Assembly: GCA_963805625.1 (NCBI GenBank)
Contig: CAWDVE010000017.1
Span: 448,001-512,000, forward strand
Origin: an uncultured Candidatus Rokubacteria bacterium
Lineage (GTDB): Bacteria > Methylomirabilota > Methylomirabilia > Rokubacteriales > DASRDR01
Direction of reading: 5' to 3'
Length of the DNA stretch: 64,000 nucleotides
In this document: in pieces, positions 36,616-55,139 of the stretch
How the letters are laid out: each line of letters opens with the position of its first letter
Numbering within the stretch: position 1 is the stretch's first letter
The notes under the pieces: model-generated
What the model saw: the letters and a program-made list of their open reading frames with translations, nothing else
Told to the model about the DNA's origin: nothing
The model's database searches: none
Program-made: the position numbers and the translations under genes

Positions 36616-36631
36616 CCGAGGGAGGGACGCA

Positions 36632-37753: not shown

Positions 37754-37776
37754 CGTAGGGAGGGTTGACACAGGAT

Positions 37777-38088: not shown

Positions 38089-38147
38089 GCGGTGCGGGAG
38101 GCGGCACATCCGGGCCTCGATGGCGCGTCGGGCGGGCCGCCTGCGCG

Positions 38148-39044
38148 ATGGCGGCCGTTCGGCGGCGGTTGTGGCGCGACAAGGCGGGGCTGTTCGGGCT
38201 GCTGGTCTTGCTGGCGCTGACCGGAGTGGGCTTGTTGGGTCCGCTGCTGAGCCCGCACGACCCCGGCGCGATGAACCTCGCCGAGCGGCTGCGGCCGCTC
38301 ACCTGGCTGCCGGGCGGCGGGCCGGCCCATCCCCTGGGCACCGATCAACTCGGCCGCGACGTGCTGTCGCGCATCTTGCACGGTGGGCGCGTATCGCTCA
38401 CGGTCGGCGTGACCGTGGTGTTCGCGACCGGCTTGATCGGCTGCGCGCTCGGGCTGGCCGCCGGCTATTTTCGTGGCCGCGTCGATGCGCTGGTGAGCGG
38501 ACTCGCCGACATTCAGGTGGCGTTTCCCGGATTGCTGCTGGCTCTGGTGGTCCTGGCCGTGATCGGCCCGAGCCCCGGCGGCGTCATCGTCGTGCTCATC
38601 ATCAACGGTTGGATGGCGTTCGCCCGGCTGGCGCGCGCGATGACGCTGTCGCTGCGCGAGCGCGCCTTCGTCGAGGGCGCGATCATCCTCGGTTGCCGGC
38701 CAGCCCGCGTGGTCTTCCGCCACATCCTGCCCAATCTAGCCTCGCCAATGTTCACGCTCGCCGTGCTCGAGTTCGCGCGCGTCATATTGGCCGAGGCGGC
38801 GCTGTCTTACCTGGGCGTGGGCGTGCAGCCGCCAACCGCCTCGTGGGGCCTCGATGTGGCGGAAGGCAAGAGCTACATCTTTCGCGGCTGGTGGCTGGTC
38901 ACCTTTCCCGGCTTGGCGCTCGCCGTCACCGTGCTTGGCGTCAACTTGTTCGCGGGCTGGTTGCAGCTGGTCACGAATCCCCATGAACGCGAGAAGCTGC
39001 TAGCCCAATCACAGACGGCCGGCGGCGCCAGCTCGGGCGCCTGA
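38148..39044 (+). CDS. Peptide ABC permease (DppC-like)
   Basis: HPLGTDQLGRDVLSR, RHILPN, EAALSYLGVG. Confidence 0.92.
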   Translation: MAAVRRRLWRDKAGLFGLLVLLALTGVGLLGPLLSPHDPGAMNLAERLRPLTWLPGGGPAHPLGTDQLGRDVLSRILHGGRVSLTVGVTVVFATGLIGCALGLAAGYFRGRVDALVSGLADIQVAFPGLLLALVVLAVIGPSPGGVIVVLIINGWMAFARLARAMTLSLRERAFVEGAIILGCRPARVVFRHILPNLASPMFTLAVLEFARVILAEAALSYLGVGVQPPTASWGLDVAEGKSYIFRGWWLVTFPGLALAVTVLGVNLFAGWLQLVTNPHEREKLLAQSQTAGGASSGA

Positions 39045-39149
39045 CCAGGGGCCGATGGGCTCGTGGAGATCGAGGCGCCGCGGGTCGAATTCGCGACGGG
39101 AGCCGGAGCCCCTGACGGCCGGGTCGAGCTCGTAGGCCTTGTAGACGAC

Positions 39150-39590
39150 TCGGAGCACGCGGGCCGCTCTCCAGCGAGCGCGCGGCGCGAGTAGGCCGAT
39201 ACGCACCAACGGCCGGCGGGGCGGGGGGGCGAAGGCGGCGAGCCACTCCAGCAACTCCAGGGGCTCCAGGAAGAGCGCAGTGGAGCCATCGTGCCAGGGA
39301 CGCCAGTGGTACAGCAGGCGCCCGCCCGTGCTCTCCGTCAGCCGATCGAGTGCCAGCGGCGGGCGCACGAGGTAGCGCACCAGGCGCTCCAGCTGATCCC
39401 GCCGGCGCGCCGGCACCGTGACATCCGCATGCAGGCTGAACCCCTCAAGCCGGGCCGCGCGCCGCCCCGTCGTCGTCGGGTCGGCCGCCGACCGGAGGCG
39501 ACGCACCAGCTGCTCGGCGCGCGGGCCCCGTGCGCCTCGGCCTTGCAGCGAGGCGGCGACGGTCTGCGCGAACAGCGGCCCCGAACCGAG
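39150..39590 (-). pseudogene. IS91-family (Y2) transposase fragment
   Basis: GFSLHA...LERLVRYLVRPPLALDRL...LEPLELL. Confidence 0.75.
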
Positions 39591-39602
39591 GGTTAGTGGC
39601 CG

Positions 39603-40112
39603 TTACAGGACCTCCACGCGAGTCCGAGCGAAGTTGCGCGACGCGAGGAGCAGGCGGCCGCTAAACGCGTACATGAGGAGCTCCACGACGTGGCGCGCGC
39701 GGTGCTGGTCCACCGACGCGGGGTCGTGCGCCACCTGCAGGTCGAGGCGCGCCGGCGGCTCGACGGCGCGCGGCATCTCGAACATGACCGTTGCGCCGCA
39801 CTCGGGACACTGGGCCGCCGCGTGGCCCGTCGCCTCGTACACGTCGAACCCGTCGCCGTGGAGCGCGAGCCGGTAGGCCGGCCGGGGCGTCTGGTCGCCG
39901 GGCACGCCGCGCCGCTCGCTCATGCGGAGGTCGGCGCCACGCGGTTCCTGGCGCTGCCGGCGCTCCCCCTGCCGCCGGTCCGTCAGCACGTCCACCCACG
40001 GAGCGAGCCGGTAGCGCCACGCGAGCTCATCCAGAAGACCCGGCCGGTCCGGGCGCGTCACCACCACCCAGCGGGGCGACGCTAGGTCAGGGCTCTTCGT
40101 TGAACCCAGCAT
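39603..40112 (-). CDS. Hypothetical protein (DRRxxERR + CPEC), paralog of 53327-53836
   Basis: Aligns end-to-end with the second copy. Confidence 0.85.
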   Translation of the reverse strand: MLGSTKSPDLASPRWVVVTRPDRPGLLDELAWRYRLAPWVDVLTDRRQGERRQRQEPRGADLRMSERRGVPGDQTPRPAYRLALHGDGFDVYEATGHAAAQCPECGATVMFEMPRAVEPPARLDLQVAHDPASVDQHRARHVVELLMYAFSGRLLLASRNFARTRVEVL

Positions 40113-40238
40113 CGCCACGGCCGACCATGAGCGCCTTTGTCCCCATCATTCGCCCACCGCTCCGGGATCGAAAAAGAGCGACTGGCCACCTGCTGCTAGG
40201 CGCCACCGGGGATGCCCGGTGGCGCCGCCTTCGGCCCC

Positions 40239-43200
40239 TTACTTCGTGAAGCTGAACAGGGCGACGTGCTCCGAGCCGTCGGCCAGCTTCACGACGAGCC
40301 GCCGGCAAGTTCCGCCCCAGCTCTTGTCAGTCTTCCAGACGTAGTGGTACTGGTCGGAACCCGGATCGTACGTCAGTCCGCTGGCACCGGGCGTGTCGAC
40401 CACCTCGATGTCATCGACGGCGCCATTACATCCAGTCGAGTAGGAAATCGGGTAGCCGGCCATGAAGATGCCCATCCCTTGGTACCCGCTCAGACTGAAC
40501 TTGATGGGGATGGCTTGTCCGGCCTTCACCCGATTCTCGGTCGGAAAGTTGTCGATCGGATGGAAGAACCCGGTGAAGTTGTAGCCGGTCACCGTGAACG
40601 TCCGGTCCTCGTTGGGCGCCGGATTGTAGTTCGCGTTGCCGAGCTGGGACGCTCGGATCGTACAATAGCCGGCCAGGAGCACATCAACTGTGGTGCCGCT
40701 GACCGTGCAAACGGGCGTTGTCAAGCTGGTGAAGCCGACCGTTAGTCCAGAGGAAGCGGTCGCGCTGATCACGAAGTTCGGGTCAAGGAAATACTTGTCC
40801 GCCAGCGCCCCAAACGTGATCGTCTGATCCGCCTTCTGCGCCGTCGTGTCGCTCGTCTTCTCAGGCGCCGCGTTGTAGTTCCCGTTCCCCGCCTGGTTGT
40901 AGTGCACCGTGCAGGTGCCCATCCCGCTCGTCATCTTGATGACGGCCGAGTTGCTCCCACCCGAGTCCACCGAGCACACCCCGGTCGCCGTGATCACCAC
41001 CGCGTTCCCGGACCCGCCCCCCGTCGCCGCCACGTTGAACGTGGTGTTGTACACCGCCGTCCCCGGCGCCGCCGTCGTCACCGTGATCGTCTGGTCTGCC
41101 TTCTGCGCCGTCGTGTCGCTCGTCTTCTCGGGCGCCGCGTTGTAGTTCCCGTTCCCCGCCTGGTTGTAGTGCACCGTGCAGGTGCCCATCCCGCTCGTCA
41201 TCTTGATGACGGCCGAGTTGCTCCCACCCGAGTCCACCGAGCACACCCCGGTCGCCGTGATCACCACCGCGTTCCCGGACCCGCCCCCCGTCGCCGCCAC
41301 GTTGAACGTGGTGTTGTACACCGCCGTCCCCGGCGCCGCCGCCGTCACCGTGATCGTCTGGTCTGCCTTCTGCGCCGTCGTGTCGCTCGTCTTCTCGGGC
41401 GCCGCGTTGTAGTTCGCGTCCCCCGCCTGGTTGTAGTGCACCGTGCAGGTGCCCGTCCCGCTCGTCATCTTGATGACGGCCGAATTGCTCCCACCCGAGT
41501 CCACCGAGCACACCCCCGTGGTCGTGATGGCCACGGAGAGGCTCGAGGAGGCCGTCGCCGCCACGTTGAACGTGGTGTTGTACACCGCCGTCCCCGGCGC
41601 CGCCGTCGTCACCGTGATCGTCTGATCCGCCTTCTGCGCCGTCGTGTCGCTCGTCTTCTCAGGCGCCGCGTTGTAGTTCCCGTTCCCCGCCTGGTTGTAG
41701 TGCACCGTGCAGGTGCCCGTCCCGCTCGTCATCTTGATGACGGCCGAGTTGCTCCCACCCGAGTCCACCGAGCACACCCCGGTCGCCGTGATCACCACCG
41801 CGTTCCCGGACCCGCCCCCCGTCGCCGCCACGTTGAACGTGGTGTTGTACACCGCCGTCCCCGGCGCCGCCGTCGTCACCGTGATCGTCTGGTCTGCCTT
41901 CTGCGCCGTCGTGTCGCTCGTCTTCTCGGGCGCCGCGTTGTAGTTCGCGTCCCCCGCCTGGTTGTAGTGCACCGTGCAGGTCCCGGCCCCGCTCGTCATC
42001 TTGATGACGGCCGAGTTGCTCCCACCCGAGTCCACCGAGCACACCCCGGTCGCCGTGATCACCACCGCGTTCCCGGACCCGCCCCCCGTCGCCGCCACGT
42101 TGAACGTGGTGTTGTACACCGCCGTCCCCGGCGCCGCCGTCGTCACCGTGATCGTCTGGTCTGCCTTCTGCGCCGTCGTGTCGCTCGTCTTCTCGGGCGC
42201 CGCGTTGTAGTTCGCGTCCCCCGCCTGGTTGTAGTGCACCGTGCAGGTCCCGGCCCCGCTCGTCATCTTGATGACGGCCGAGTTGCTCCCACCCGAGTCC
42301 ACCGAGCACACCCCCGTGGTCGTGATGGCCACGGAGAGGCTCGAGGAGGCCGTCGCCGCCACGTTGAACGTGGTGTTGTACACCGCCGTCCCCGGCGCCG
42401 CCGTCGTCACCGTGATCGTCTGATCCGCCTTCTGCACATTGAACGAAGCGCTGTTCCCTGGCGTGAAACTGCCACTACTCGCAGTCAGCACCACGCCGTT
42501 TTCGGCCTTTGAATACGTGACGCCCGAAATCGTTACAGAGTTGGTCCCGGCAAGGATCGTCCCTGTCACCGTCCCACCGAGTGTTCCAGTTCCCGTATTA
42601 ACGGACAGCGTTACGTTCGTATTCACTGAGACATTGGTCGGGCTCGATGCGCTGTTCTGCGACTGAACCACAACCGAAAACGGCGTGCCGAAGGTCGGAT
42701 TTGCGCCGCCGTTCACGGAAGTGATGGCGAGCTTGAGGGCGTTGAACGTGACTGTAACAGTTACAGCGTTGTTAACATTGGTCCCCACACAGGGGTTCGT
42801 TGTAACGATACCTGCTCCACACACACCGCCCGAACCACCGAAGCTCCAATTGACAAACGACGAGCTGCCATTCGGTGTCGCTGTCAATGTATAGTTCGGG
42901 TTACCGGAGGCCGTCGTAATTGAGATGGACGAGCAAGTCGCCGTGATCTTTGCGGTCGCAGTCCCAGAGCCGGTTCCAGAACATCCTCCTAGATTGACGA
43001 TGTCTGCAGGGGCCTTCGTCGCCTTAATTTCGACCTCACCGGCACCCGTACCGCCAAATGTGACAGCCAGTGTCCTGGTGTTCGCCGCCCGGTACGGCCC
43101 GACGAATGGTCCGCCGTCGCCGATCGGGTCGGCGCCCGCGGGCTGGATCTCGTCCGTGCCAGTGTCCTCGAGCGCGCGGGCCATGTTGACGCGGCCGTTG

Positions 43201-44318
43201 CCGGTCTGGTCCTGCGTGCCGGCCGGGTCGGCGGTGCGCGCCATGCGGCCCACGATCATCCCGTTGGTCAGCGTGGGGTCGACGGCCTTCAGGAACGCGG
43301 CCACGCCGGCGACGATCGCCGCCGAGGAGGACGTCCCGCTGACCGCCACGTAGTCGCCGTTGAGATCCGTCGTCGCGATGCTCTCGCCGGGCGCCGCAAG
43401 AAAGGCCGCCTTCCCGTAGTTGCTGTAACCGAGCAGTGCGTCGGCCTGGTCGGTCCCCGAGACGCCGATGACGCCGCGGTCGCCAGCCGGGAAGGTGGGC
43501 GTGCCGGCAGCGTCGTTGCCGACGGCGGCCACCAGCACGGCGCCGCGCGACCACGCGTAGTCGATCGCGTCCTGGAGGTTCGGGCTGAAGCCGGGGTTGC
43601 TGAAGGCCATCAGGATGACGTCGGCCCCGTGGTCGGCGGCCCAGATGACGCCTGCGATGACATCGCTGTCGCGCCCCTCACCGTTCGCGTCGAGGACGGT
43701 CACGGGCATCAGCTGCACACCGGCGAACGCGATGCCCGCGATGCCGATGGCGTTGTCGGTGTTAGCGGCAACAATGCCGGCCACCCACGTGCCGTGCCCG
43801 TTGGAGTCGCTCAGCCCGTTGCTGCCGTCGAGGATGGACGTTCCAGGCACCACGCGGCCAGCGAGATCAGGGTGGGCGGCGTTGATGCCGCTGTCGAGGA
43901 TCGCGACCTTGGCCGTCCCGGTCGGGGCCACCGTGCCGAAAACGAGGTCCCAGCCGATCTGCGGAAGCGCCCACTGGGAGACGGCATGCTCATCGTTCGA
44001 GAGCATCTCGCTCCGGCGGACGCGGTTCTCCTCCACGTGCTGGACCTGGGGATCCGCCTCGTAGCGCGCGGTCGTGTCCGCGAGCTCGACGGTTGGCACC
44101 TGGACGACATGGAGGCGGAGCGCCGCGATCGCGCTGGTCTCGGTCCCGCCGTTGCGGGCGATGACCGCCGCCTGCTCCTCCGCGGTGAGCCCGGACACGA
44201 GCTTCACCAGGAGCGACGACGTCTCCGGTGGTGGTGTCTGAGCCGAGGCGCCCGATGGCAGGAGTCCCAGGCTCAGGACGGCGAGGGTGATCAGCACGAA
44301 CGCGGCGCGCTTCAGCAT
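40239..44318 (-). CDS. Secreted S8 subtilase with Cys-paired Ig-like repeats and C-terminal PxKF domain
   Basis: Signal peptide, ILDSG, NGHGT, SGTSSS; C-terminal GFFHPIDN...AGQAIPIKFSL...YVWKT. Confidence 0.92.
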   Translation of the reverse strand: MLKRAAFVLITLAVLSLGLLPSGASAQTPPPETSSLLVKLVSGLTAEEQAAVIARNGGTETSAIAALRLHVVQVPTVELADTTARYEADPQVQHVEENRVRRSEMLSNDEHAVSQWALPQIGWDLVFGTVAPTGTAKVAILDSGINAAHPDLAGRVVPGTSILDGSNGLSDSNGHGTWVAGIVAANTDNAIGIAGIAFAGVQLMPVTVLDANGEGRDSDVIAGVIWAADHGADVILMAFSNPGFSPNLQDAIDYAWSRGAVLVAAVGNDAAGTPTFPAGDRGVIGVSGTDQADALLGYSNYGKAAFLAAPGESIATTDLNGDYVAVSGTSSSAAIVAGVAAFLKAVDPTLTNGMIVGRMARTADPAGTQDQTGNGRVNMARALEDTGTDEIQPAGADPIGDGGPFVGPYRAANTRTLAVTFGGTGAGEVEIKATKAPADIVNLGGCSGTGSGTATAKITATCSSISITTASGNPNYTLTATPNGSSSFVNWSFGGSGGVCGAGIVTTNPCVGTNVNNAVTVTVTFNALKLAITSVNGGANPTFGTPFSVVVQSQNSASSPTNVSVNTNVTLSVNTGTGTLGGTVTGTILAGTNSVTISGVTYSKAENGVVLTASSGSFTPGNSASFNVQKADQTITVTTAAPGTAVYNTTFNVAATASSSLSVAITTTGVCSVDSGGSNSAVIKMTSGAGTCTVHYNQAGDANYNAAPEKTSDTTAQKADQTITVTTAAPGTAVYNTTFNVAATGGGSGNAVVITATGVCSVDSGGSNSAVIKMTSGAGTCTVHYNQAGDANYNAAPEKTSDTTAQKADQTITVTTAAPGTAVYNTTFNVAATGGGSGNAVVITATGVCSVDSGGSNSAVIKMTSGTGTCTVHYNQAGNGNYNAAPEKTSDTTAQKADQTITVTTAAPGTAVYNTTFNVAATASSSLSVAITTTGVCSVDSGGSNSAVIKMTSGTGTCTVHYNQAGDANYNAAPEKTSDTTAQKADQTITVTAAAPGTAVYNTTFNVAATGGGSGNAVVITATGVCSVDSGGSNSAVIKMTSGMGTCTVHYNQAGNGNYNAAPEKTSDTTAQKADQTITVTTAAPGTAVYNTTFNVAATGGGSGNAVVITATGVCSVDSGGSNSAVIKMTSGMGTCTVHYNQAGNGNYNAAPEKTSDTTAQKADQTITFGALADKYFLDPNFVISATASSGLTVGFTSLTTPVCTVSGTTVDVLLAGYCTIRASQLGNANYNPAPNEDRTFTVTGYNFTGFFHPIDNFPTENRVKAGQAIPIKFSLSGYQGMGIFMAGYPISYSTGCNGAVDDIEVVDTPGASGLTYDPGSDQYHYVWKTDKSWGGTCRRLVVKLADGSEHVALFSFTK
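40815..42437 (-). repeat. Six 264/267-bp intragenic repeats in ABB-ABB order
   Basis: QKADQTITVTTAAPG...AAPEKTSDTTA units; higher-order period 798 bp. Confidence 0.95.
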
Positions 44319-44350
44319 GACGGGACCTCCAGGTGAAGTTGATTCACGAC

Positions 44351-44650
44351 TCATGGCAATGACGATTTGATCGACTGCGAAGTGATGGATGCGGCGACCC
44401 CGAACCTGTCGCCGTGCGCGTCCACGCGGAGCACCTCGCCGACGCAGCTCAAGTGAAGCGGCCCGGGCTCGGAATACTCGAGGACGAGCGTGAAGCGGAT
44501 GGGCGCTCCGGCCGAATACCGCTCTTCGGTCTCGAAGTAGATACCCAATGCACTGATGTCACGCGTGAGCCCCTTCCCTTGCTCCGTCTCGACCGCGAGG
44601 CTGACCGGGTATCGCGGCATCCGCCGCCGCTCGATCCGGGCCTCTGACAT
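44351..44650 (-). CDS. Single-domain PilZ protein
   Basis: RRMPR (RxxxR) and DISALG (DxSxxG). Confidence 0.88.
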   Translation of the reverse strand: MSEARIERRRMPRYPVSLAVETEQGKGLTRDISALGIYFETEERYSAGAPIRFTLVLEYSEPGPLHLSCVGEVLRVDAHGDRFGVAASITSQSIKSSLP

Positions 44651-44800
44651 GACGTGCACTCTAGGGAATGGCGGGCGCCGGGAGAATCCCCGGAAAGGTA
44701 GGATTTTCTATATCCCGGAGATAGAGGCCCCTCGGGTTCGGCAGATCAGCCGGAAGCGGAGGGGACCGGAGGGGAGGGGCGCCGGGCGGAGCCCGGGAGG

Positions 44801-45439
44801 CTAGAGGAGCCCCTTCTCCCGGGCGTAGTGGGTCAGGGCGACGCGGCCGTCGATCCCGAGCTTCTCGTAGATGTTGTGGAGGTGGACCTTTGCGGTCCCC
44901 TCGCTGATGTGGAGCCGGTCGGCGATGGCCTGGGTGCGGAGGCCCTGAGCCGCGAGCCGGACGATCTCGATCTCGCGGGGCGTCAGGACCGAGGACACGT
45001 CGCGGAACCCCGCTTCCCGGCGGAGCATCTTGTCGAGGGCCATGGTCAGGGAGCGCCGCTCGATCCACTGCTCGCCGGCGGCCACCTTTCGGACGCACTC
45101 CACGAGCATCTGGGGCGCCATCTCCTTCAGGACGACCCCCTTGACCCCGAGGCGCACCGCCTCGAGCACGTCGTCCTCCCCAAGCGCCGCCGTCAGGAGC
45201 ACGATCCGCGTCGGGAGGCTCTCCCCCTGGAGCTCCCGGATCACCTGGAGCCCGTCCGGGGCCGGCATGCGGATGTCGAGCAGGAGAACGTCCGGCCGGT
45301 GCTGGCGGACGGCGCGGAGCGTCTCGGCGCCGTCCTGGCAGCGGGCGACGACCGCGAAGTCCTTCTGCGCGCGGAACAGCTGCTCGAGCCCGTCGAGCAC
45401 GATCGGGTGGTCGTCGGCGAGGACGAGCCTAACCGGCAC
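44801..45439 (-). CDS. NarL/LuxR family response regulator
   Basis: LADDHPIV, LLDIRMP, LTPREIEI...AKVHLHNIYEKLG. Confidence 0.95.
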   Translation of the reverse strand: MPVRLVLADDHPIVLDGLEQLFRAQKDFAVVARCQDGAETLRAVRQHRPDVLLLDIRMPAPDGLQVIRELQGESLPTRIVLLTAALGEDDVLEAVRLGVKGVVLKEMAPQMLVECVRKVAAGEQWIERRSLTMALDKMLRREAGFRDVSSVLTPREIEIVRLAAQGLRTQAIADRLHISEGTAKVHLHNIYEKLGIDGRVALTHYAREKGLL

Positions 45440-47138
45440 GGCGAGCTCCCAGGCGCTCGAGAGGCAGGACGATCTCCAGGCGGACGCCCTGCTCGCTTGA
45501 GTCGACCGTGAGGGACCCGCCGAGCCCGTCGACGCGGGACCAGAGGGTGACCGGCCCCGCTCCGGGAGCCGCGAGTGCGGCGTGATCGCGGCGGCCGTGG
45601 AACGAAAGGCCGCGGCCGTCGTCCACGACCAGGAGGCGCACGCGGCCTTCCCGCGCCTCGGCGCGCACGTCGACCGTCTTCGCCCTGCCGTGGCGGGCCG
45701 CATTGACCAGGGCCTCCTGAACCATGAACTGGACGGCCCGGGCGAGCTCCCGCGGAAGCCGGGCCAGCCCGGGGTCCGCCTCGAGGGTGACCCGGAGTCC
45801 CCACTGCCGCTCGACCCGGCGGCACAGCTCCTCGAGCCGCCCGGCCAGCGTAGTCTCCGGGGGTGCGGCGCCCGCAGGGGCCGGCTTGAGGTCCCGGAGA
45901 AGCGTGCGGAGGTCGCGCTGCTCGGCGGAGAGGAGGCGCTGGACGTCGCGGAGGCGCCCGGCGGCATCCGCCTGGTCGGTGGCGATGAGGCCCCGGGCCA
46001 CCTCGATCTGGAGCCCCGCCGCGGTCAGCGCCTGGAGGAGACCGTCGTGGAGGTCGCGGGCCAGCCCGATCCTTGCGTCCGTCTCCGACGCCTCCCCGAG
46101 CCGCTCCATCAAGCGGAACTGCTCCATACGCGCCGTCACCTGGCGCGCCACCACCTCCCCAAGGATGAGGTCGTCGGAGGTCGGCGAGCGCTTGTCCAGG
46201 ACGAAGAGCCAGCCCCGGACGACCTCGCCGCGCAGGGGCAGCGCCACCACGGAACGGATGCCGAATCGGGCGCACAGGTCGGCGTGGAGCGGGGTGCCCG
46301 TCCAGGAGCCCGACTGACCCCGCGCGACCTGGAAGACGCGGGGAGCCGGCGCCGTGGCGTCGCCGCAGAGGAAGTCCGCGCCCTGGAGCGGCGGGGCCAC
46401 CAGTGGCTCGAAGATGCCCGGCGCCTCCCGGGTCCACTGGAGGCCGTCGGGCGACCACGCCGCGACGTGCCGCCATGGCTCCTCGGGGTCATCCCACACG
46501 AGGAGAGTTCGGGGTGCCTCCATCGTGCTGGCGGCCTGGGTCAGGGCCTCCCCGATCAGCGCAGCGCCCTCGTGGGGGACGACGGCCGGCCATGCAGCCA
46601 GTCGGGCAATCTCCCCGCGGAGCCGGCGCTCGTAGGCGCCCAGATACCCGATGAGCACGGCGACCACCGCCAGGTAAACGCTCCGGACGATGAAGTGGTT
46701 CAGCTCGAAGCGCGGATCTCGCTCGATCTCGCCCGCATGGAACCCCATCGCCAGGAAGAGGACCACCGCCGCTAGGGCCGTCCACAGGGTGCCCGGCCCG
46801 CCCCAGCGGAGCGTGGCCGCCACGATGGCGAAAACGAAGAGCGCGAAGAAGGGGCTCGTCGGCCCCTCGGTGAGGTACATGACCAGGGTGAAGACCGCGA
46901 GGTCGAAGGCGTGGGTGGCCAGCCGCAGGCGAATCGCCGCCGGGTCGGCGAGCCACGTCGCCGCGGCCATGATCGCGGCGTAGACGACGTAGACCGTCAG
47001 GACGAGGGAGGCCGCCCGAGCGTCCTTGATGGGCGCGGTCGGGTCGAGCCAGAGCGCCAGGAGGGCGGACGCGGCCAGCACGACGCGCCCAGCGGCGATG
47101 AGCCGCTCCGCCCGGCCCTGGGGGGAATACTGGATCAC
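45429..47138 (-). CDS. Membrane sensor histidine kinase (HisKA_3)
   Basis: TM helices, GAF-like domain, LARDLHDG, QEALVNAARH, DDGRG. Confidence 0.93.
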   Translation of the reverse strand: MIQYSPQGRAERLIAAGRVVLAASALLALWLDPTAPIKDARAASLVLTVYVVYAAIMAAATWLADPAAIRLRLATHAFDLAVFTLVMYLTEGPTSPFFALFVFAIVAATLRWGGPGTLWTALAAVVLFLAMGFHAGEIERDPRFELNHFIVRSVYLAVVAVLIGYLGAYERRLRGEIARLAAWPAVVPHEGAALIGEALTQAASTMEAPRTLLVWDDPEEPWRHVAAWSPDGLQWTREAPGIFEPLVAPPLQGADFLCGDATAPAPRVFQVARGQSGSWTGTPLHADLCARFGIRSVVALPLRGEVVRGWLFVLDKRSPTSDDLILGEVVARQVTARMEQFRLMERLGEASETDARIGLARDLHDGLLQALTAAGLQIEVARGLIATDQADAAGRLRDVQRLLSAEQRDLRTLLRDLKPAPAGAAPPETTLAGRLEELCRRVERQWGLRVTLEADPGLARLPRELARAVQFMVQEALVNAARHGRAKTVDVRAEAREGRVRLLVVDDGRGLSFHGRRDHAALAAPGAGPVTLWSRVDGLGGSLTVDSSEQGVRLEIVLPLERLGARRAG

Positions 47139-47261
47139 GCGTCACCTCCGCCGTGCTGCAGGACGGCCTTCGCCCACCGACGCACGCGGTCGATGGCGGA
47201 CCGATTATCGCCGAGACCGAGCCCTGTCTCGAAGAAGCGCGTTGGGAACGACCCCGCGCAG

Positions 47262-47328
47262 TGTCCTCGAGCGAGACGGTCCGGGCTCCAGACTCCTTCG
47301 ACCGCCGGACGTAGCCGACGGCGATCAT
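47262..47328 (-). pseudogene. Serine recombinase N-terminal stub
   Basis: MIAVGYVRRSKESGARTVSLED. Confidence 0.55.
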
Positions 47329-47488
47329 GGGCGCCGGCCCTGCGCACGAGCCTGTGCCCGCAGGCGAGCCTCGGCTACGACCTCCAGGCCACGGCCCAGC
47401 TCAAGACATTCGACTGAGCGGGTACGTGCGAGCCGTCCGCTCTGCTCCCTATCCCTACGCGCGGCGTCCGGCCGGCCGCCGGACCGCG

Positions 47489-49411
47489 TCAGTGGGCATA
47501 GGTCACGCGGATGACCTCGTCGACCGTGATGATTCCTGCCGCCACCTTGCGCAGCCCTGCGTCGCGCAGGGTTCGCATCCCCTGCGCGATCGCGATGTCC
47601 CTGATGTCGCGCGCCGACCGGCGCTGGACGACCGCCTCCTGGACCTCGGGAGTGATCTCGAGGAACTCGGCCACGACGGTGCGGCCCCGGTACCCAGTCC
47701 CGGCGCAGTTCGAGCACCCCCGGCCGGCCTGGAGCTTGAGCTTGGCCGCTTCCTCGGGCTTGAATCCGATGTCCAGCAGGGCCCCCATGGACACGGTCGT
47801 CGTGTCCCGGCACTCGAGGCAGATCTTCCGGCACAGGCGCTGGGCGACCACGAGGAGCAGGCACGAGGAGACGAGGAACGGCGCGACGTCCATGTCGAGC
47901 AGCCGAGTCACCGTGCTCGGCGCGTCGTTGGTGTGGAGCGTCGAGAACACGAGATGCCCGGTCAGGGCGGCGCGAATGGCGATCTGCGCCGTCTCGGTGT
48001 CCCGCATCTCGCCCACCAGGATCACGTCCGGATCCTGCCGGAGAAACGAGCGCAGCGCGGTCGTGAACGACAGGCCGATGTCCTCCCGCACGTGCACCTG
48101 CTTGATCCGCGGCAGCTTGTACTCGACGGGATCCTCGGCCGTCAGGATGTTGATCTCCGGCGAGTTGATGGTGGACACGGCCGCGTACAGGGTGGTGGAC
48201 TTGCCGCTTCCCGTCGGCCCGGTGACGAGGATCATGCCGTGGGGTGCGCGGATGAGGCGCCGGAGGCGGTCGAGGTCGTCGTCCTCGAACCCGAGCCGGA
48301 CCAGGTCCAGGACGACTCGCGACTTGTCGAGGATCCGCAGGACGATGCTCTCGCCGAAGATCGTGGGCAGGGACGAGACGCGCAGGTCGATCTCGCCGTG
48401 CGCGAGCCGCACCGTGATCCGGCCGTCCTGCGGCAGGCGCCGCTCTGCGATGTCCATCCTGGACATGACCTTGACTCGCGAGAGGATGGCCGGCTCCATC
48501 TGCTTCGGGGGCTGGATGGCGTCGTGCAGCACGCCGTCGATGCGGTACCGGACGTTGAAGGTATCCTCGCCCGGCTCTAGGTGGATGTCCGAGGCGTGTT
48601 TGCCGATCGCGTCGGCGAGGATCAGGTTCACGAGCCGGATGACCGGCGCCTGCTTGGCTCCCTCCTCGAGCTCCGTGATGTCGACCTTCCGGGCCCACTC
48701 AATCACCTGGATGGAGTCGGCGTCCGGCCGCTGGTCGACCTTGAACAGGGCGTCGATCTTGGCCTGGTAGTCGATGTGGTAGTGTTTGCTGAGGCTCGCG
48801 CGGATCGCGGCGGTCGGGGCCAGCACGGGGACTACCCGCAGACCGGTGGCGAACTGGATGTCGTCAATGGCGGACAGGCTGGTCGGATCAGACAGAGCGA
48901 GCGTCAGGGTGTCGTCGACCCGGCGGACGGGGAACACGTGGTACCGCTGCGCGATCTCGCGCCGGACGAGCGTCAGGGTCTCCTCCGGGATGTCAAGCGC
49001 CTCGAGGTTGACGATCGGGATGCCGTACCGGTGGCTGAGCCAGGAGAACAGTTGATTCTCGTTGAGGAACCCGAGCCGGGTGAGCACGGGCCCCACACCC
49101 TCCCCGGTTTTCCGCTGTTCCACGGCCGCCTGCTGGGCCTGCTCCGTCGTGAGCGTGCCCTCCGCGACCAGAATCTCCAAGAGCCGTGGTACCCCGGTCG
49201 CCAGGCGCCGCCATTCGCGTGCCTCTCGCACGTCCGATCCCGCTACCAGCGTCTCGTTGGCTATGCCGTCGCCCCGCGATGCCGTGTCCACGGGCGCTCT
49301 GGCGGCTCCGGCCCGCCGCTCACGTAGCATCCTCCGGACCAATACAACCGCCAGGCCCAGCGTGGCCAGGAAGGCCGTGATGAGGACGAAGGTTAGGAGA
49401 TATGGGTCCAT
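47489..49411 (-). CDS. pilB: PilB/GspE-type assembly ATPase with N-terminal TM segment
   Basis: ASDIHLEP, PQDGR, GPTGSGKST, LRQDPD, tetra-Cys motif, GYRGR; MshEN-like N-domain. Confidence 0.9.
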   Translation of the reverse strand: MDPYLLTFVLITAFLATLGLAVVLVRRMLRERRAGAARAPVDTASRGDGIANETLVAGSDVREAREWRRLATGVPRLLEILVAEGTLTTEQAQQAAVEQRKTGEGVGPVLTRLGFLNENQLFSWLSHRYGIPIVNLEALDIPEETLTLVRREIAQRYHVFPVRRVDDTLTLALSDPTSLSAIDDIQFATGLRVVPVLAPTAAIRASLSKHYHIDYQAKIDALFKVDQRPDADSIQVIEWARKVDITELEEGAKQAPVIRLVNLILADAIGKHASDIHLEPGEDTFNVRYRIDGVLHDAIQPPKQMEPAILSRVKVMSRMDIAERRLPQDGRITVRLAHGEIDLRVSSLPTIFGESIVLRILDKSRVVLDLVRLGFEDDDLDRLRRLIRAPHGMILVTGPTGSGKSTTLYAAVSTINSPEINILTAEDPVEYKLPRIKQVHVREDIGLSFTTALRSFLRQDPDVILVGEMRDTETAQIAIRAALTGHLVFSTLHTNDAPSTVTRLLDMDVAPFLVSSCLLLVVAQRLCRKICLECRDTTTVSMGALLDIGFKPEEAAKLKLQAGRGCSNCAGTGYRGRTVVAEFLEITPEVQEAVVQRRSARDIRDIAIAQGMRTLRDAGLRKVAAGIITVDEVIRVTYAH

Positions 49412-49573
49412 CTGTCGGGTGTCACCTATCGGACGCCGAGCGCCAAAGCCATCTCGCCGACCCTCCGCGCGAACTTCCGTGCACGCGTCTCAGAGGCTGT
49501 GGCTGTGGCCATGCACATATCGTACCCGTCTCGAACCCGCCGCAACCCGATGCCTACCCTGTCAAGTTTCCCC

Positions 49574-49618
49574 TTATTCGGGCGAATTCGGGTCTCATTA
49601 TTCGGGCGAATTCGGGTC
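49574..49618 (+). repeat. 21-bp direct repeat, period 24 (four ATTCGGG heptamers)
   Basis: ttattcgggcgaattcgggtc at 49574 and 49598. Confidence 0.9.
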
Positions 49619-49701
49619 GCCATTTCCGACGGCCTAGAGATGTGCATCCTCTTTAGGGAATTAGCTGCAAGCAGCCATGGAGTGGTTAAAGACCAGTTCA
49701 C

Positions 49702-49717
49702 TGGCGCGACTACTGCA
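49702..49717 (+). promoter_or_regulatory. Probable sigma54 promoter of the pilin operon
   Basis: TGGCGCGACTACTGCA (GG-N10-GC). Confidence 0.6.
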
Positions 49718-49774
49718 CTGACGCCGAGTTCGGGGGCCTCGCTTATTGCGGGCACCCTCGAGGAGAGTCAGACC

Positions 49775-50263
49775 ATGGAATTGCTCAGCGACCGGCGGTG
49801 GATTGGCGGAACGCGTACTGCCACCGGTACCGCCGGCGATGCAGGGGTGACTCTCGTCGAGCTGATGATGGTGCTCGCCCTCCTCGCCCTCCTCGGCTTC
49901 GCATCGATGCTCGCCCTTGGCAACGTCCGGGAGATCACACGCACGAAGGGAGCCGCCGAGCAGGTGGCGAGCGCGATCCAGCAGACCCGCTCCTACGCTG
50001 TGATGCACACGGCCTCGTACGAAGTCACCTTCCCCGGCAACAACCAGATCACGATCGCGTGCGTGGCCAACTGCAGCGTAAGCCCACCGGGCGACGGACC
50101 GACCCCCGTTGTGCACGAGCTGACCGTCACTCCCCCGGGAACGCCGATCCGGTTCACCTCCACCGGCGCCTCGAACGGCGGCTCGATCGTCGTCAATCCC
50201 GGAACCGATCAGAAGACCGTCTCGGTCACGCTGGCCGGTCGGGTCGACATCACCCCGCCATAG
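49775..50263 (+). CDS. Minor pilin, FimT/GspH-like
   Basis: G|VTLVELMMVL class III signal; VSVTLAGRV tail. Confidence 0.88.
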   Translation: MELLSDRRWIGGTRTATGTAGDAGVTLVELMMVLALLALLGFASMLALGNVREITRTKGAAEQVASAIQQTRSYAVMHTASYEVTFPGNNQITIACVANCSVSPPGDGPTPVVHELTVTPPGTPIRFTSTGASNGGSIVVNPGTDQKTVSVTLAGRVDITPP

Positions 50264-50274
50264 GAAGCACCGCG

Positions 50275-50667
50275 GTGCAGGGCCTTCGGAACCGGTCAGG
50301 GCTGACCCTCGTCGAGGTGCTCCTCGCCGTCATGCTGATCGGGGTCGCCCTCATCGCGCTGGCCGCCGCCTTCCCGCCCGCCTTCTACGCCGTCCACGGC
50401 GGACGCCATCTCACCACGGCCGCCGCGCTCGACCAGGAGGTCATCGAGGGCGCCAAGCGGCTCGCGTTCACCGCCGTGACCGCCACGAACCTGGCCACCC
50501 TTTATCCCTCGCCGCCGACCGGGTATGCGGGCTACACGCGGGTGATCCAGGTCGACGACATCGTCGAGGGTGGAGCCGTGGTCATGAAGCGGGTGACCGT
50601 GCGGACGACGTACACGCTGTATGGCGGCCAGTCGAACGTGTCGATGGTGACGCTCATTGCGCGCTGA
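50275..50667 (+). CDS. Minor pilin, PilV-like
   Basis: G|LTLVEVLLA. Confidence 0.88.
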   Translation: MQGLRNRSGLTLVEVLLAVMLIGVALIALAAAFPPAFYAVHGGRHLTTAAALDQEVIEGAKRLAFTAVTATNLATLYPSPPTGYAGYTRVIQVDDIVEGGAVVMKRVTVRTTYTLYGGQSNVSMVTLIAR

Positions 50668-51319
50668 GCGGCCCACGGACCGGGGCCTCTCCCCGCGCGG
50701 CACGGGACGCGGGCAGGCCGGCACCACGCTGCCCGAGCTCCTGATCACGCTGGTTGTGTTCAGCATCGTCATGCTCGTGGTCATCGTCCTGTGGCAGCAG
50801 AGCCAGCAGGCCTACTTCCACGGCGCGACGGCCGCCGAGCTCCAGCAGAACGCCCGGGTTGCGCTCGAGCAGATGACCCGCGAGGTGCGGCAGGCCGGCT
50901 ACGATCCCTGTCGATACATGAGCACGACCTGCGGCACCACGAGCGCCTTCGATCCGGTCGTCGCGGGCGTGTTTCCCATCCAGGCGTTCAACGCGACGAG
51001 CCTCTGGGTGCGCGCGGACCGGAACCGGAACGGTGACGTGACGCCGGGGGTGGGGAACCCTGACGAAAACATATGCTTTCGCCTGGCCGGCGGCCAGATT
51101 CTGCGGAAGACCACGGGTGTGGACTGCACCTCCGGCGGCGTCGAGCTCGCCCGGAACATCAACGCGCTGACCCTCACCTATTTCAAGGCGAACGGAACTG
51201 CCGCCACCGTCTGGTCCGACATCCGGATGGTCCGGATCAGCATCTCCGCGCAGGAGATGTTCATGGGCGCGCCCGTGACCGTGACGCTGCGCTCGGATGT
51301 ACGCCTCCGCGACCGATAG
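50657..51319 (+). CDS. Minor pilin, PilW-like
   Basis: G|TTLPELLI; QQNARVALEQMTREVRQAGY. Confidence 0.88.
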   Translation: MRAERPTDRGLSPRGTGRGQAGTTLPELLITLVVFSIVMLVVIVLWQQSQQAYFHGATAAELQQNARVALEQMTREVRQAGYDPCRYMSTTCGTTSAFDPVVAGVFPIQAFNATSLWVRADRNRNGDVTPGVGNPDENICFRLAGGQILRKTTGVDCTSGGVELARNINALTLTYFKANGTAATVWSDIRMVRISISAQEMFMGAPVTVTLRSDVRLRDR

Positions 51320-51344
51320 CCAAACCGGAACAGGGGAGACTGCG

Positions 51345-52802
51345 ATGCCACGCAACGCCTGGAAGCGTCACGGGGTGAGGGACGAGCAGGGAACGATCCT
51401 CGTGGTGACCGTCGTCGCCATGCTGATCCTCGGCATCCTGGCGATCTCGTTCGCCGCCCTCGGGAACCTCGAGGTGCGCATCGGCATGAACGACGTCTGG
51501 GACAAGCAGGCGGGTCTCGTCGCCGAGGGCGGCATCTCAGCCGTACGGAACCAGATCCAGACTCCCCCGGACTACACCGCCTTCTTGGACGGGCGCGTCT
51601 ACAGCTGCACGACGTCGTCCTGCTCCTGTAGCACGGGGTGCGCGATCGCCGGCCTCGCCACGATGCCGACGGGCGAGTTCTCGGTGCGGATCGACAACGA
51701 CCCCGACGATCCGTCCGGCTCGACCACCGTGGACGGCAACAAGCGGGTCATCCTCACGGCGCTCGGGATCACGCGCGGCGCCACGGGCAACGTCATGGGT
51801 CGGAGCCGGATCCGGGCCTGGCTCACCAACGACGATCCGTGGGACCACGTCTGCGCGAGCGGCGAACCCAACCCACTCTGTACCGAACCGCCCAACAACC
51901 CGAACGCCAACATCAACCCGCCCGACCCCAACGACCCGAACGGACCCCGTGCGTATCCTGAGATCCCCCGGCCGAGCGACATCCGGTGCACCCCGTCCGT
52001 GGGCGGCGCCCTGGGGTTGGGGGCGGGTAGTCCGTATCCGGTGCCCGCCGGACTGAGCAATGCCCAGGTGCCGGCGGCTCCCCGGGGCCCGTGCGTGATG
52101 TACCCGTACTACGAGATCGCGCTCACGACCCCCTGCACCGCGTGTAACCCGCAGACGTCTGCGTACCATCCGATCGCGTGCCCCACCGGGGACGCGTGCC
52201 TCGGCATGGTGCGTTTCGACGCGGACCTGGACATCCGGAACGGGACCTCGAACACCAACCGGCTCGGGGTCACCGGCAACACGCTTTCGGGCACGCTCTA
52301 CGTCACAGGCAAGGTGCGGGCGCAATCCCAGATCGGCACGATCCTCGGCACCCTCATCCTGCACGGTGGGGGCGATCCCGGCACCGGCGGGTCCCAGACC
52401 GATTTCGCCCTGGCCGGACCCCACACGGTCACGACCCAGGGGCCGGCGTGCCTCCCGAACTGCGCCTACCCGTTCGCGGTTCTGGCGTACAACCCGAACG
52501 AGCCGGCCCCGCCCGGCCAGACGATCGTCCTCGACATCAGCAATTCGGGCGTGGTCATCACCGGGACGGTGTACACGGGCGGTACGGTGGACTTCGGACC
52601 GAACACCATCACCGGGTCGATCCTCGCGCAGGTCGTCCACGCCAACAACGCGGCGACGCAGTTCCAGTACTCGTCGGCCTACGAGAACTACCTGCCGCCG
52701 CCGGGGTTCACCACGCCCTCGGTGACCCTGCCCTCGGTGGTCGCCCGGGGGACGTGGATCCAGTGCCTTACGGCGGACAACCTCACCGATCCCTGTGACT
52801 GA
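51345..52802 (+). CDS. PilX/GspK-like large minor pilin with Cys-rich tip domain
   Basis: DEQG|TILVVT (no Glu5), AEGGI. Confidence 0.85.
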   Translation: MPRNAWKRHGVRDEQGTILVVTVVAMLILGILAISFAALGNLEVRIGMNDVWDKQAGLVAEGGISAVRNQIQTPPDYTAFLDGRVYSCTTSSCSCSTGCAIAGLATMPTGEFSVRIDNDPDDPSGSTTVDGNKRVILTALGITRGATGNVMGRSRIRAWLTNDDPWDHVCASGEPNPLCTEPPNNPNANINPPDPNDPNGPRAYPEIPRPSDIRCTPSVGGALGLGAGSPYPVPAGLSNAQVPAAPRGPCVMYPYYEIALTTPCTACNPQTSAYHPIACPTGDACLGMVRFDADLDIRNGTSNTNRLGVTGNTLSGTLYVTGKVRAQSQIGTILGTLILHGGGDPGTGGSQTDFALAGPHTVTTQGPACLPNCAYPFAVLAYNPNEPAPPGQTIVLDISNSGVVITGTVYTGGTVDFGPNTITGSILAQVVHANNAATQFQYSSAYENYLPPPGFTTPSVTLPSVVARGTWIQCLTADNLTDPCD

Positions 52803-52928
52803 CCGGTCCCCCTGTCCGGCGGCATCGCGACCAGCGCGATCACCTCGTCGCTCTCGGGGGCAACCACGCCGTCACTGCGGGCTACAGCGGTGACACGAAC
52901 TTTCATGGTAGCAGTAGCGACAAGCAAC

Positions 52929-53313
52929 ATGAGCATCCCCCAGGTGGTCCAGTACATATTTGCCGGGTTCTACCCGCCGGTGGACAACGAGCCGACCCTC
53001 AACAAAGCCAATCCTGGCCAGGCCATCCCGCTCAAGTTGCGGCTCACCGACGCGAGCGGTGTCGGGTTCTCGAACCCGGCGAGCTTCGTCAACCTCAGCG
53101 CGGCGCCAGTGACTTGTGGCAATTGGGTGGTCAACCCTGACTCAGCCATCGAGGAGTATGCGGCAGGGAATTCCGGCTTGCAGTACCAAGGGAACGGCAA
53201 GTGGCAAATTCAACTGGAAGACGCCCAAGGAGTATGCCCAATGCTGGCTAATGCTGATGATGCTGAACCTCTCGGATGGATCCCAGCATTTCGCGGACTT
53301 CCAGTTCAGGTAG
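52929..53313 (+). pseudogene. Stand-alone PxKF domain, frameshift near 53207
   Basis: GFYPPVDN...GQAIPLKLRL, then FNWKTPK...LSDGSQHFADFQFR in another frame. Confidence 0.75.
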
Positions 53314-53326
53314 GAGGGCGTCGGGT

Positions 53327-53836
53327 ATGAGCGGTGAGATGAGCCCTGACGCCGCACCACCGCGGTGGGTGGTCGTGACGCGACCAGACCGGCCGGGTCT
53401 TCTGGATGAGCTCGCGTGGCGCTACCGGCACGCCCCGTGGGTGGAGGTGTTCGCCGACCGGCGCCGTGGGGAGCGGCGGCGGCGCCAGGAGCCGGGCGCG
53501 TCCGAACTCCGAATGGGCGAGCGACGCGGCGTGCCCGCTGACCGGACCTACACGCCTGCCTTCCGGCTCGTGCGCCAGGGCGACGGGTTCGACGTGTACG
53601 AGGCGAATGGCTACACGTCCGCACGATGTCCGGAATGCGGCGCGATGGCGGTGTTCGAGATGCCGCGCTCGGGCGAGCCGCCGGGGCGCCTCAATTTACA
53701 CGTCGTGCACGACCCCGTGCCCTTGGAGCTGCAGCACCGCGCGCGCCATATCGTGGAGCTGACCCTGTACACGTTCGGCGGCCGTCCGCTCCTGGCCTCC
53801 CGCATCTTCGCGCGGACGCGGGTCGACGTCACGTGA
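53327..53836 (+). CDS. Hypothetical protein (DRRxxERR + CPEC), paralog of 39603-40112
   Basis: AGGAGG RBS overlapping the PxKF stop; aligns with the first copy. Confidence 0.85.
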   Translation: MSGEMSPDAAPPRWVVVTRPDRPGLLDELAWRYRHAPWVEVFADRRRGERRRRQEPGASELRMGERRGVPADRTYTPAFRLVRQGDGFDVYEANGYTSARCPECGAMAVFEMPRSGEPPGRLNLHVVHDPVPLELQHRARHIVELTLYTFGGRPLLASRIFARTRVDVT

Positions 53837-54101
53837 TCGCCGCCCCCGGGGGCCCAAGGATTGGAAGGGAGTGGACCAAGTCGGTGCCCAGGATGCCGGT
53901 GACCTCTGGCCGCCGAGCCAGCTGATGGCGGACCTTGGTCAGCAGCTTCTGAGCGGTATGGGTCCACGGACCGGTTGAGCCCGTCTTACGAGGTCACGCT
54001 CAGTCCGGCCCCTACCGGAAGCGATCGATTTTCCTCTTGACACACCGTTCCAACCTTCATTTCCGGACCGCGGGGCAACTGCGGCTGCTACCGTGATCTC
54101 C

Positions 54102-54315
54102 ATGGGAAACGCCGACGGGCCACCAGGGGCAGGCGGGAGGTCGCCCTGGCTGCACGAGACGCTCTACGCGCGCCGCATCGTCCTCGTGACCGGCCGACTC
54201 GACGACGGCGTGGCGGCCCCGCGCCGCGGCCGCGCTCGTGAGCCTCGACGCGGCGGAAACGAGACGATCGAGGTCCATGTGGATAGCCCCGATGGCACGC
54301 TGGAGGCCGCCTCGG
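54102..54315 (+). pseudogene. ClpP-like protease fragment
   Basis: LYARRIVLVTGRLDD...IEVHVDSPDG. Confidence 0.55.
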
Positions 54316-54504
54316 AACGGGCAGTCCTTTGCAGTGCCAGCCGGGGTTCGGATGGAAGACCCCCGCCTCGCTCGCGTGGAAAACCTCGGCGATCCGCAGT
54401 TCGCCGAGGTCCTTCGTATTGTTGAATCGGTCGAGCCCACTCTGATGGATCTGATAGATGTCAGGGACGAGGAGAAGCTTCATGGGGGAACGATGCGTCC
54501 CCCG

Positions 54505-55077
54505 CCTGCGCGCCAGGACCACGAAGACGAACAGGACCTTGAACATCACGGTGGGGACGACGAAGAAGTCGACGGAGACGAGGGTCTGAAGGTGGTTCTC
54601 GAGAAAGGTTCGCCAGGTCTGCGATGGCGGCTTCCGATGGCGGACGACGTACTTGGACACTGTTGCCTGGGAAATCTCGATGCCCAGCTTCTGGAGCTCC
54701 CCGTGAATCCGCGGCGCGCCCCAGATGGGGTTCGCCGTGGACATCTGTCGGATGAGCGCTCGAACCTCCAGGGCGACGGCTGGGCGGCCTGGTCCGTTCC
54801 GGCGGCTCTTCCAGGTCCAGACGAGCTTGAAGCCGGTCCGCTGCCACCGGATCACCGTCGCGGGTTGGACGACGGAGATGGCATCCATCCAGCCGCTCCA
54901 CATACGGGACAGCAGGACCCACAACAGCCGGTCGGCCGTCCGCAGGCGTGGGCGCCGCGCGGTGCGCTGGAGGACGGCCAGTTGGTGCCGTAACGCGAGG
55001 TTCTCGAACACCAAGGAGCGCTGGGTCCTGACACCACGGAGGAGACCGATGAGGATGAGGGTGATCACGCCGGCCAT
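54505..55077 (-). pseudogene. Truncated integrase-core (rve) transposase
   Basis: ENLALRHQL, NPIWGAPRIHGEL, PPSQTWRTFL, SVDFF. Confidence 0.85.
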
Positions 55078-55139
55078 CATCGATCAGGCCGGCTGACAGT
55101 TCAACGTTGACGAGGCGGATGGAGTAAATAGAAGGCACA

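Follow-up and report, generated by a model that had tools for sequence, protein, structure and literature searches.

In Myxococcus xanthus, three clusters of minor pilins and PilY1 are served by a single type IVa pilus (T4aP) machine, according to the accessible portion of PMC7541494, and in cyanobacteria a beta-solenoid PilX has been proposed to replace PilY1, with different minor-pilin sets priming different filaments (PMC13759059, in the portion available). Acinetobacter baylyi uses two extension motors, PilB and TfpB, and small PilB cofactors such as PilZ, FimX and CpiA are listed in the available text of a review (PMC11656802); the same text describes PilB motors as cytoplasmic and recruited via their N-terminal domain and cofactors, does not contain the word "transmembrane", and leaves open why cells retain several PilBs. 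For the Rokubacteria, our literature search on pili found nothing beyond a line on twitching-motility genes in the accessible part of PMC5712423. Here we analyzed a 64,000-nt stretch of DNA (the window) from an uncultured Candidatus Rokubacteria bacterium, positions C17:448001-512000 of a 7.27-Mb genome of ~70% GC (G000, the source genome), and in it a cassette at window positions 39603..53836 that runs from a small protein, Y1, to its paralogue, Y2, and encodes a PilB-type extension ATPase and four minor pilins.

We lean modestly towards reading the cassette as an accessory tip set that brings its own membrane-anchored extension motor to the T4aP machine of the host, with Y as a candidate cofactor. 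The gene content, the intact ATPase motifs, the conserved hydrophobic N-terminus and the complete host machine on which this reading is built are all observed. No report of the cassette as a module, nor of a membrane-anchored PilB, was found in a literature search that did not extend to subscription papers and supplements.

The cassette PilB matched the T2SSE and MshEN profiles and fell just below the cut-off of the PilB profile TIGR02538 (667.8 bits against 675.65). Its N-terminus extends 75 residues beyond the start of the host PilB, beginning with a hydrophobic helix that is followed by a basic patch. The preliminary description of this DNA had correctly placed a pilB gene in the left arm of the cassette, but the conserved anchor was absent from it. 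When residues 1-125 were used as the query to gather the anchored subfamily, 13 other clusters were recovered that were 82-89% identical over their full length and invariant in anchor length; the cassette PilB is only 62-64% identical to the host PilB and to the unanchored PilB of a genome from another genus (G016). An anchor, scored where the best 19-residue hydropathy exceeded 2.5 and a basic patch followed, was present in 20/20 subfamily members, a count that is partly true by construction because the set was collected through its N-terminus, while a comparable anchor was found in 0/40 other PilB or GspE proteins of the order, upstream frames included. PilB is expected to be soluble and to lack a membrane segment, and the cassette protein departs from this expectation by sequence prediction rather than by fractionation. 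The first 20 codons score as coding, and a relative with ~92% identity in run X8 spans the anchored N-terminus. This N-terminus was detected in 1/183 genomes of the order and 1/251 genomes of the phylum, the source genome itself in both cases; the anchored PilB is an accessory gene that is met mainly in metagenome assemblies.

The Walker A, Asp box, Walker B and His box motifs and both CxxC pairs of the tetracysteine zinc motif were intact in 14/14 subfamily sequences. The MshEN motif for binding cyclic di-GMP (c-di-GMP), which we take to be RLGxx(L/V/I)(L/V/I)xxG, was different in this respect, with its RLG found in 0/20 anchored PilB sequences. The cassette PilB scored 34.5 bits against the NF053729 cut-off of 38, whereas the host PilB reads RLL and yet passes at 44.9 bits. 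RLL also stands in place of RLG in the main PilBs of the host's family, and RLG is kept in most members of family f2.

We placed the anchored PilBs in quick trees that were built without bootstrap and carry SH support. In the tree based on the last 565 residues, the anchored set was monophyletic (SH 100) on a stem branch of 0.38 and was sister to the G016 PilB (SH 90, and 93 in another tree). The anchored and G016 PilBs nested together inside the main-locus PilBs of other genera (SH 97-100), apart from the source genome's own PilB, a phylogeny that is consistent with a duplication followed by transfer. Among 20 second-tier PilB loci, two were main loci; near the remaining 18, neither a pilin gene nor pilC was present. 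Such orphan paralogues (L129-L148) are common in the order, and several have long, low-complexity N-terminal extensions. Another PilB-like protein of the source genome, of the MshEN type, lies in an operon with a response regulator and two PilT/PilU-like ATPases (L179:11660-15563, G000:C19), 4 kb downstream of a gene that encodes only the N-terminal module of Y.

The cassette does not constitute a self-contained type IV filament system: as the preliminary description had noted, open reading frames (ORFs) and a profile scan revealed no major pilin, PilC platform protein, secretin or PilY1 within it, and the prepilin peptidase is likewise absent. The source genome, however, carries a full type IVa pilus locus at C17:376-407 kb, ~80-120 kb from the cassette, with pilB, pilT, pilC, pilS, pilR, pilA, pilD, fimT-pilV-pilW-pilX and pilMNOPQ, which makes borrowing of the host machine plausible. 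Elsewhere it carries a second minor-pilin set (C24), a type II secretion system (C13) and a second pilA (C17:445 kb). The main locus (G000:C17:376116-407600; L001, L002) also encloses glycosyltransferases, a GGDEF gene and a hybrid kinase, and the C24 set (G000:C24:25085-27889; L003) stands alone with a 517-aa PilX and no PilB. The four cassette prepilins are co-oriented, with E5 present in three of them but not in PilX. Their closest orthologues, 48-58% identical, are encoded in G016, where fimT-pilV-pilW-pilX-pilB form one operon among kinases; PilW relatives at an E value of 1e-30 were found in only 2/183 genomes. G016 carries a further minor-pilin set, linked to pilD, on another contig (L166). 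The proposal that the tip set and ATPase plug into the host's filament machine is supported by the full T4aP locus in the source genome and by the recurrence in G016 of a pilin set with its own PilB.

It is also conceivable, although in our judgment distinctly unlikely, that the anchored PilB is a modulator that joins or competes with the host PilB, acting as an inhibitor, in priming or in pinning at the pole, and that Y switches it. The anchor and the lost RLG distinguish it from the host PilB, the stem branch of its clade is long, and PilB and TfpB of A. baylyi have distinct roles and possibly form mixed complexes, according to the available text of PMC11656802. On the other hand, all catalytic motifs of the anchored PilB are intact, and its unanchored sister shares an operon with its pilins, an arrangement that suits a dedicated motor.

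No PilY1 gene adjoins any of the three minor-pilin sets of the source genome; the PilY1 profile PF05567 gave 0 matches in this genome, but it left the control genomes blank likewise. The structural model of the cassette PilX (mean pLDDT 57) gave Z scores of 7.8-8.9 against GspK, ComZ and beta-solenoid adhesins, including 6qvi (Z 7.8, 269 residues, root-mean-square deviation [rmsd] 13.4), 3ci0_K (Z 7.8, 98 residues, rmsd 3.0) and 4wa0 (Z 8.9, 121 residues, rmsd 2.8), and Foldseek returned no match for it at E 0.001. With modest confidence, we interpret the modeled PilX as a pilin fold with an inserted beta-solenoid, a tip type that lacks PilY1.

Y1 and Y2 had no Pfam or NCBIfam match, and Y is predicted to be soluble, with no hydrophobic segment. 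Its two-part structural model (pLDDT 76) had no Foldseek match at E 0.001, and the best VIA Z score was 3.3, which does not demonstrate a new fold. In its wide sense, the Y family numbers 676 representatives and was present in 49/61 relatives, and the source genome itself has 14 Y-family ORFs, five of them full length. The N-terminal module, in which DRRxxERR repeats follow a strand-helix-strand, is an unnamed unit of wide distribution that occurs alone, in tandem or fused (P0257, P0273, P0277, P0293, P0339); its motif presumably resembles the c-di-GMP-binding RxxxR of PilZ. At 45 PilB or pilin loci, this module gave just two weak matches. In a scan for Y fusions that covered 30 of 150 listed representatives, three carried clear families (cNMP-binding, HEAT, coiled coil) and none contained a pilus domain. 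No Y was found in viral contigs. Within the close Y subfamily, members above 53% identity were confined to the source genome among the 183 genomes of the order. Metagenome loci with Y numbered 28, of which 26 were under 5 kb, so that most gave no view of the neighbouring genes. In three of the metagenome contigs (L077:521-1120, L078, L081), a gene for a secreted protein with DUF4124 and an aspartyl protease domain follows the close Y homologue.

Co-occurrence of the anchored PilB with Y was deduced from contigs of identical size in nucleotides, using the longest contig per sequence and without sight of the contig DNA. Among the matches listed, 50 anchored PilBs had 49 distinct sizes and 115 Ys had 110, after exclusion of the contig that holds the window, of three short PilB fragments and of entries that gave no length. 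Seven sizes were shared: 8,123, 9,273, 9,686, 11,895, 31,146 (with two Ys), 115,410 and 823,822 nt, so that among contigs of at least 8 kb 7/15 with an anchored PilB and 7/14 with a Y were matched, again among the matches listed. When sizes were jittered as a null, there was no match in 14,598/20,000 runs, and the maximum was four. Both Y1-type and Y2-type proteins were among the matched Ys, and the Y on the 824-kb contig was frameshifted. By eye, we also spotted that a PilX at least 90% identical to that of the cassette shares a size of 32,993 nt with an anchored PilB, and that a Y1-type protein shares 30,551 nt with a piece of the S8 protease at least 90% identical. The preliminary description had looked to the co-occurrence of Y, PxKF and pilin genes elsewhere as its check, and in the close subfamily this held, with Y and the anchored PilB together in the seven size matches, PilX and the anchored PilB together once, and PxKF next to Y at one metagenome locus (L078). 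Taken together, the close Y subfamily appears to travel with the anchored PilB.

On the accessory tip-set reading, the host PilD would process FimT, PilV, PilW and PilX, which may then form a priming and tip complex capped by the PilX beta-solenoid in place of PilY1. The anchored PilB, with host PilC and PilM, would start or extend pili that are made of host PilA and bear the cassette tip. The anchor would hold PilB at the membrane and, since the RLG motif has been lost, perhaps substitute for c-di-GMP-dependent recruitment. Y, probably a small partner of the anchored PilB in the cytoplasm, may tune or stabilize it, as small PilB cofactors do elsewhere, and the kinase and regulator, PilZ and the secreted PxKF proteins would be linked surface and regulatory cargo rather than demonstrated structural parts.

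Several observations weigh against this reading. The motor, tip and Y roles are deduced from sequence and models, the count of anchors is in part circular as described above, and the support for the anchored clade as sister to the G016 PilB is below 95, with both branches long. The G016 module has no anchor, and no Y lies within its 19-kb contig. For the tip, the model of PilX has a pLDDT of only 57, and Z values of 7-9 are common for solenoids. Distant Y homologues are widespread, with a pilus link at 0/15 same-genus loci. The pairing of PilB with Y was drawn from sizes and not from DNA, not every match is independent of the others, and some may come from the same population. The 115-kb and 824-kb contigs are long, and it is only on the four contigs of 8-12 kb that the two genes must be neighbours; among the matches listed, 8/15 anchored-PilB contigs and 7/14 Y contigs of at least 8 kb were unmatched. 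Finally, the surroundings of the cassette are a decaying island rich in insertion sequences (ISs).

The cassette had been described as mirror-arranged, with pilus and secretion genes in two arms that each end in a PxKF domain and the same unknown protein. The gene order is real, but the symmetry falls short of that description: PxKF is broken in the right arm, and Y1 and Y2, although related, are old paralogues that share only 68% identity and fall in separate supported clades (98 and 99). An inverted repeat of 396 and 110 nt, at 80% and 77% identity, joins the two Y genes and is the only long inverted repeat between 30 and 64 kb of the window. Y1 and Y2 differ at 24, 26 and 53 sites in codon positions 1, 2 and 3, respectively (165 codons), chiefly in third positions. 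The two PxKF domains of the cassette are only 47-50% alike over ~40 residues, and the arms therefore did not arise by a recent duplication. The right-arm PxKF-like DNA begins immediately 3' of the pilX stop codon, in the middle of a Big_3_5 domain (profile positions 60-81), and has no start codon, no signal peptide and three frame changes, matching NF038114 in two separate pieces (45.8 bits); intact relatives (P0059-P0063) carry Ig or other domains ahead of PxKF. Sequencing error was considered as the cause of these breaks and set aside: a Logan contig of run X1 (52718-52953, 0 differences, 0 gaps) spans the junction of pilX with the remnant and the first two of the three breaks, with the qualifications that X1 may be the source sample and that the third break lies outside the listed X1 pieces. 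A recent inverted duplication, or transposon ends, was likewise rejected as the origin of the mirror, given the codon-position differences, the separate Y clades and the divergence of the PxKF domains. The divergence of the Ys, their separate clades and the divergence of the PxKF domains therefore indicate that the mirror is two divergent operons, each ending in an old unit of a PxKF protein followed by Y, the right one apparently shortened by deletion. Among the 28 mostly short metagenome loci, the DNA of one, L078, likewise has PxKF immediately ahead of a close Y, and three others have tandem Ys.

The PxKF domain had also been proposed to act in sorting or docking, and we considered whether it could attach the S8 cargo to the pilus tip, or lead to its export by the pilus machine, and in so doing replace PilY1. 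The left-arm PxKF is intact and C-terminal on a protein with a signal peptide (NF038114, 126.5 bits). A scan of GTDB contigs yielded 20 other PxKF loci, from Chloroflexi, Acidobacteria, Actinomycetes and Rhizobium, and PxKF was C-terminal in 18/20 of these proteins (one stops at a contig edge and one is partial), most of which have signal-peptide-like N-termini. Such positions suit a sorting domain, as do the placement of PxKF ahead of Y twice in the cassette and once in L078 and the contig size shared by a Y1-type protein and an S8 piece. However, pilins, PilB, PilT, PilC, PilD, PilM, PilQ, PilZ, Y and a prepilin motif were found at 0/20 of the loci, within up to 10 kb; the motif used recovers 3/4 of the window's pilins, and the comparison is one of loci rather than of the whole genomes of those taxa. 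Since none of these loci carries pilus genes, a pilus-specific sorting role for PxKF is unsupported. Moreover, among the 61 relatives PxKF was present in seven, PilX in 32 and PilB in 58, the copy beside the pilin genes is a pseudogene, the G016 module has no PxKF, and PilX already has a predicted solenoid cap. We therefore regard pilus docking by PxKF as highly unlikely. A weak match to the Y module (E 0.003) lies ~6 kb from PxKF in L059 and was not taken as support, and a literature search on the PxKF domain found nothing relevant. In the source genome, a second pilA-like gene lies immediately upstream of the gene for a further large, secreted S8 protease, this one with TIG/Ig domains, in the rplT-pheS region (L008:13042-17897, comprising window 1-1896 and upstream DNA).

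Control of the cassette by its two-component system and c-di-GMP had been suggested as well. The pair of kinase and regulator was found in 3/21 genomes of the family, including G007 and G016, where it adjoins polysaccharide-export-like or secreted-protein genes. We rejected the pair as a fixed part of the module, since the loci in G007 and G016 (12 and 20 kb) contain no pilus, Y, PilZ or PxKF genes. With the pair lacking pilus genes in 2/2 other genomes and RLG missing from the anchored PilBs, control of the pilus genes by the kinase, regulator and PilZ is no more than a possibility. The PilZ protein carries RxxxR and DxSxxG motifs, which we take to be the PilZ signature, and a contig of run X3 with ~91% identity joins PilZ to the S8 gene.

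Profile scans with Pfam and NCBIfam and the ORFs confirmed the minus-strand order of the left arm (PilB, kinase, regulator, PilZ, S8-repeats-PxKF, Y1) and the transposase remnants on both flanks, while in the plus-strand right arm the FimT/PilV/PilW/PilX-like genes and Y2 were recovered but PxKF as a gene was not, being remnant DNA only. The features are listed in the table.

Table. Features of the cassette and its immediate flanks, in window positions.
Feature	Position	Strand	Basis
Flank: Y2_Tnp transposase remnant	39009..39506	-	profile match
Y1, soluble, 169 aa, outside any named family; DRRxxERR-type module at the N-terminus, CxxC, C-terminal half rich in beta structure	39603..40112	-	no Pfam/NCBIfam match, no hydrophobic segment
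Secreted subtilase S8 with six 88-89-aa repeats and C-terminal PxKF, 1359 aa; D142/H175/N268/S330 motifs	40239..44318	-	
Stand-alone PilZ protein with RxxxR and DxSxxG	44351..44650	-	PF07238, 33.9 bits
NarL/LuxR-type response regulator, 212 aa	44801..45439	-	profile match
Membrane sensor kinase, 569 aa: PilS-like transmembrane region (below cut-off), GAF, HisKA_3, HATPase	45429..47138	-	
PilB-type extension ATPase, 640 aa: signal-anchor-like helix (~7-25), basic patch, linker, degenerate MshEN, intact catalytic and zinc motifs	47489..49411	-	
FimT/FimU-like minor pilin, 162 aa; E5-bearing prepilin motif	49775..50263	+	
PilV-like minor pilin, 130 aa	50275..50667	+	
PilW-like minor pilin, 220 aa	50657..51319	+	
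PilX-like tip pilin, 485 aa, without E5; predicted pilin fold with inserted beta-solenoid	51345..52802	+	
Pseudogene remnant: second half of Big_3_5 Ig domain and PxKF; no start, three frame changes	52803..53313	+	
Y2, 169-aa Y1 paralogue (68%), separate Y clade	53327..53836	+	
Flank: transposase/integrase-type remnant (HTH_32/HTH_21)	54088..55080	-	profile match

The block lies downstream of a tRNA-Met gene (window 21941), amid IS elements, a serine recombinase and gene fragments. The intervening stretch (window 21941-39600) is a mosaic island with several IS elements, the 560-aa serine recombinase, a broken P450 gene and a truncated peptide ABC transporter. Given this setting, the motor, Y, pilins, two-component pair and PxKF could have been co-inherited without a joint function, as hitch-hikers in a decaying block. 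The broken PxKF remnant, the rarity of the anchored PilB among the genomes of the phylum and the occurrence of the kinase-regulator pair, PxKF and distant Ys without pili would each be expected of such an assemblage, but we consider it unlikely overall: apart from the remnant, each of the 11 cassette genes has an open, full-length reading frame, the ATPase clade has kept its sequence and is invariant in anchor length, both Y clades recur with it, and the pairing of a pilin set with PilB recurs in another genus. The accessory tip set with its own motor remains the reading that we prefer. The S8 gene contains six repeats of 264/267 nt. A scan of the cassette for promoters and terminators gave results at chance level, and there was no RNA dataset among the matches listed for the queried sequence. 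Beyond the right flank, a 225-nt direct repeat (93%) surrounds a HicA/HicB-like toxin-antitoxin pair, with a second, partial hicA copy (window 55140-56182), and an asparagine-synthase-type amidotransferase gene is convergent with a gene for a 540-aa protein without a Pfam match (window 57538-61124).

A natural PilB clade that has its own anchor and intact catalytic motifs, and that is linked to a tip set and a small partner of no known fold, would allow a direct test of the matching of motors to tip sets and of the idea that a tether makes recruitment dispensable. We entertain, as a speculation with little likelihood, that the anchored PilB and Y form an undescribed inner-membrane pair of motor and cofactor that chooses its own tip complex. 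If so, a mobile module would let one machine swap motor and tip together, with tip specificity encoded by the motor and independent of recruitment by c-di-GMP; the PxKF protease is an example of the linked surface cargo that it would also deliver.

The cassette had been put forward as a candidate for an undescribed system; its comparison with known systems indicates a variant of multi-tip-set pili rather than a new class. Like M. xanthus, the source genome combines several FimU/T-PilV-PilW-PilX sets, three in number, with one core machine, but unlike those of M. xanthus its sets have no adjacent PilY1, and the cassette set is borne on an island and brings its own PilB. The large PilX, with a pilin fold predicted to be interrupted by a beta-solenoid and no PilY1, resembles cyanobacterial PilX, Thermus ComZ (6qvi) and GspK (3ci0), whereas neither a dedicated anchored motor nor Y is described for the cyanobacterial sets in the accessible portion of PMC13759059. 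The PxKF proteins elsewhere (NCBIfam NF038114, "rightmost") share with the left-arm protein a C-terminal domain on a secreted multidomain protein, but they do not lie beside pilus genes, and the second copy of the cassette is broken. A further extension ATPase on a single machine, with a candidate small partner protein, recalls PilB and TfpB of A. baylyi and the small PilB cofactors. The cassette PilB nevertheless differs from TfpB, scoring 477 bits against the NF053534 cut-off of 850, bearing a hydrophobic N-terminal anchor and apparently having arisen inside the PilB clade of its own order, and Y, which resembles no named family, differs from the PilZ, FimX and CpiA cofactors.

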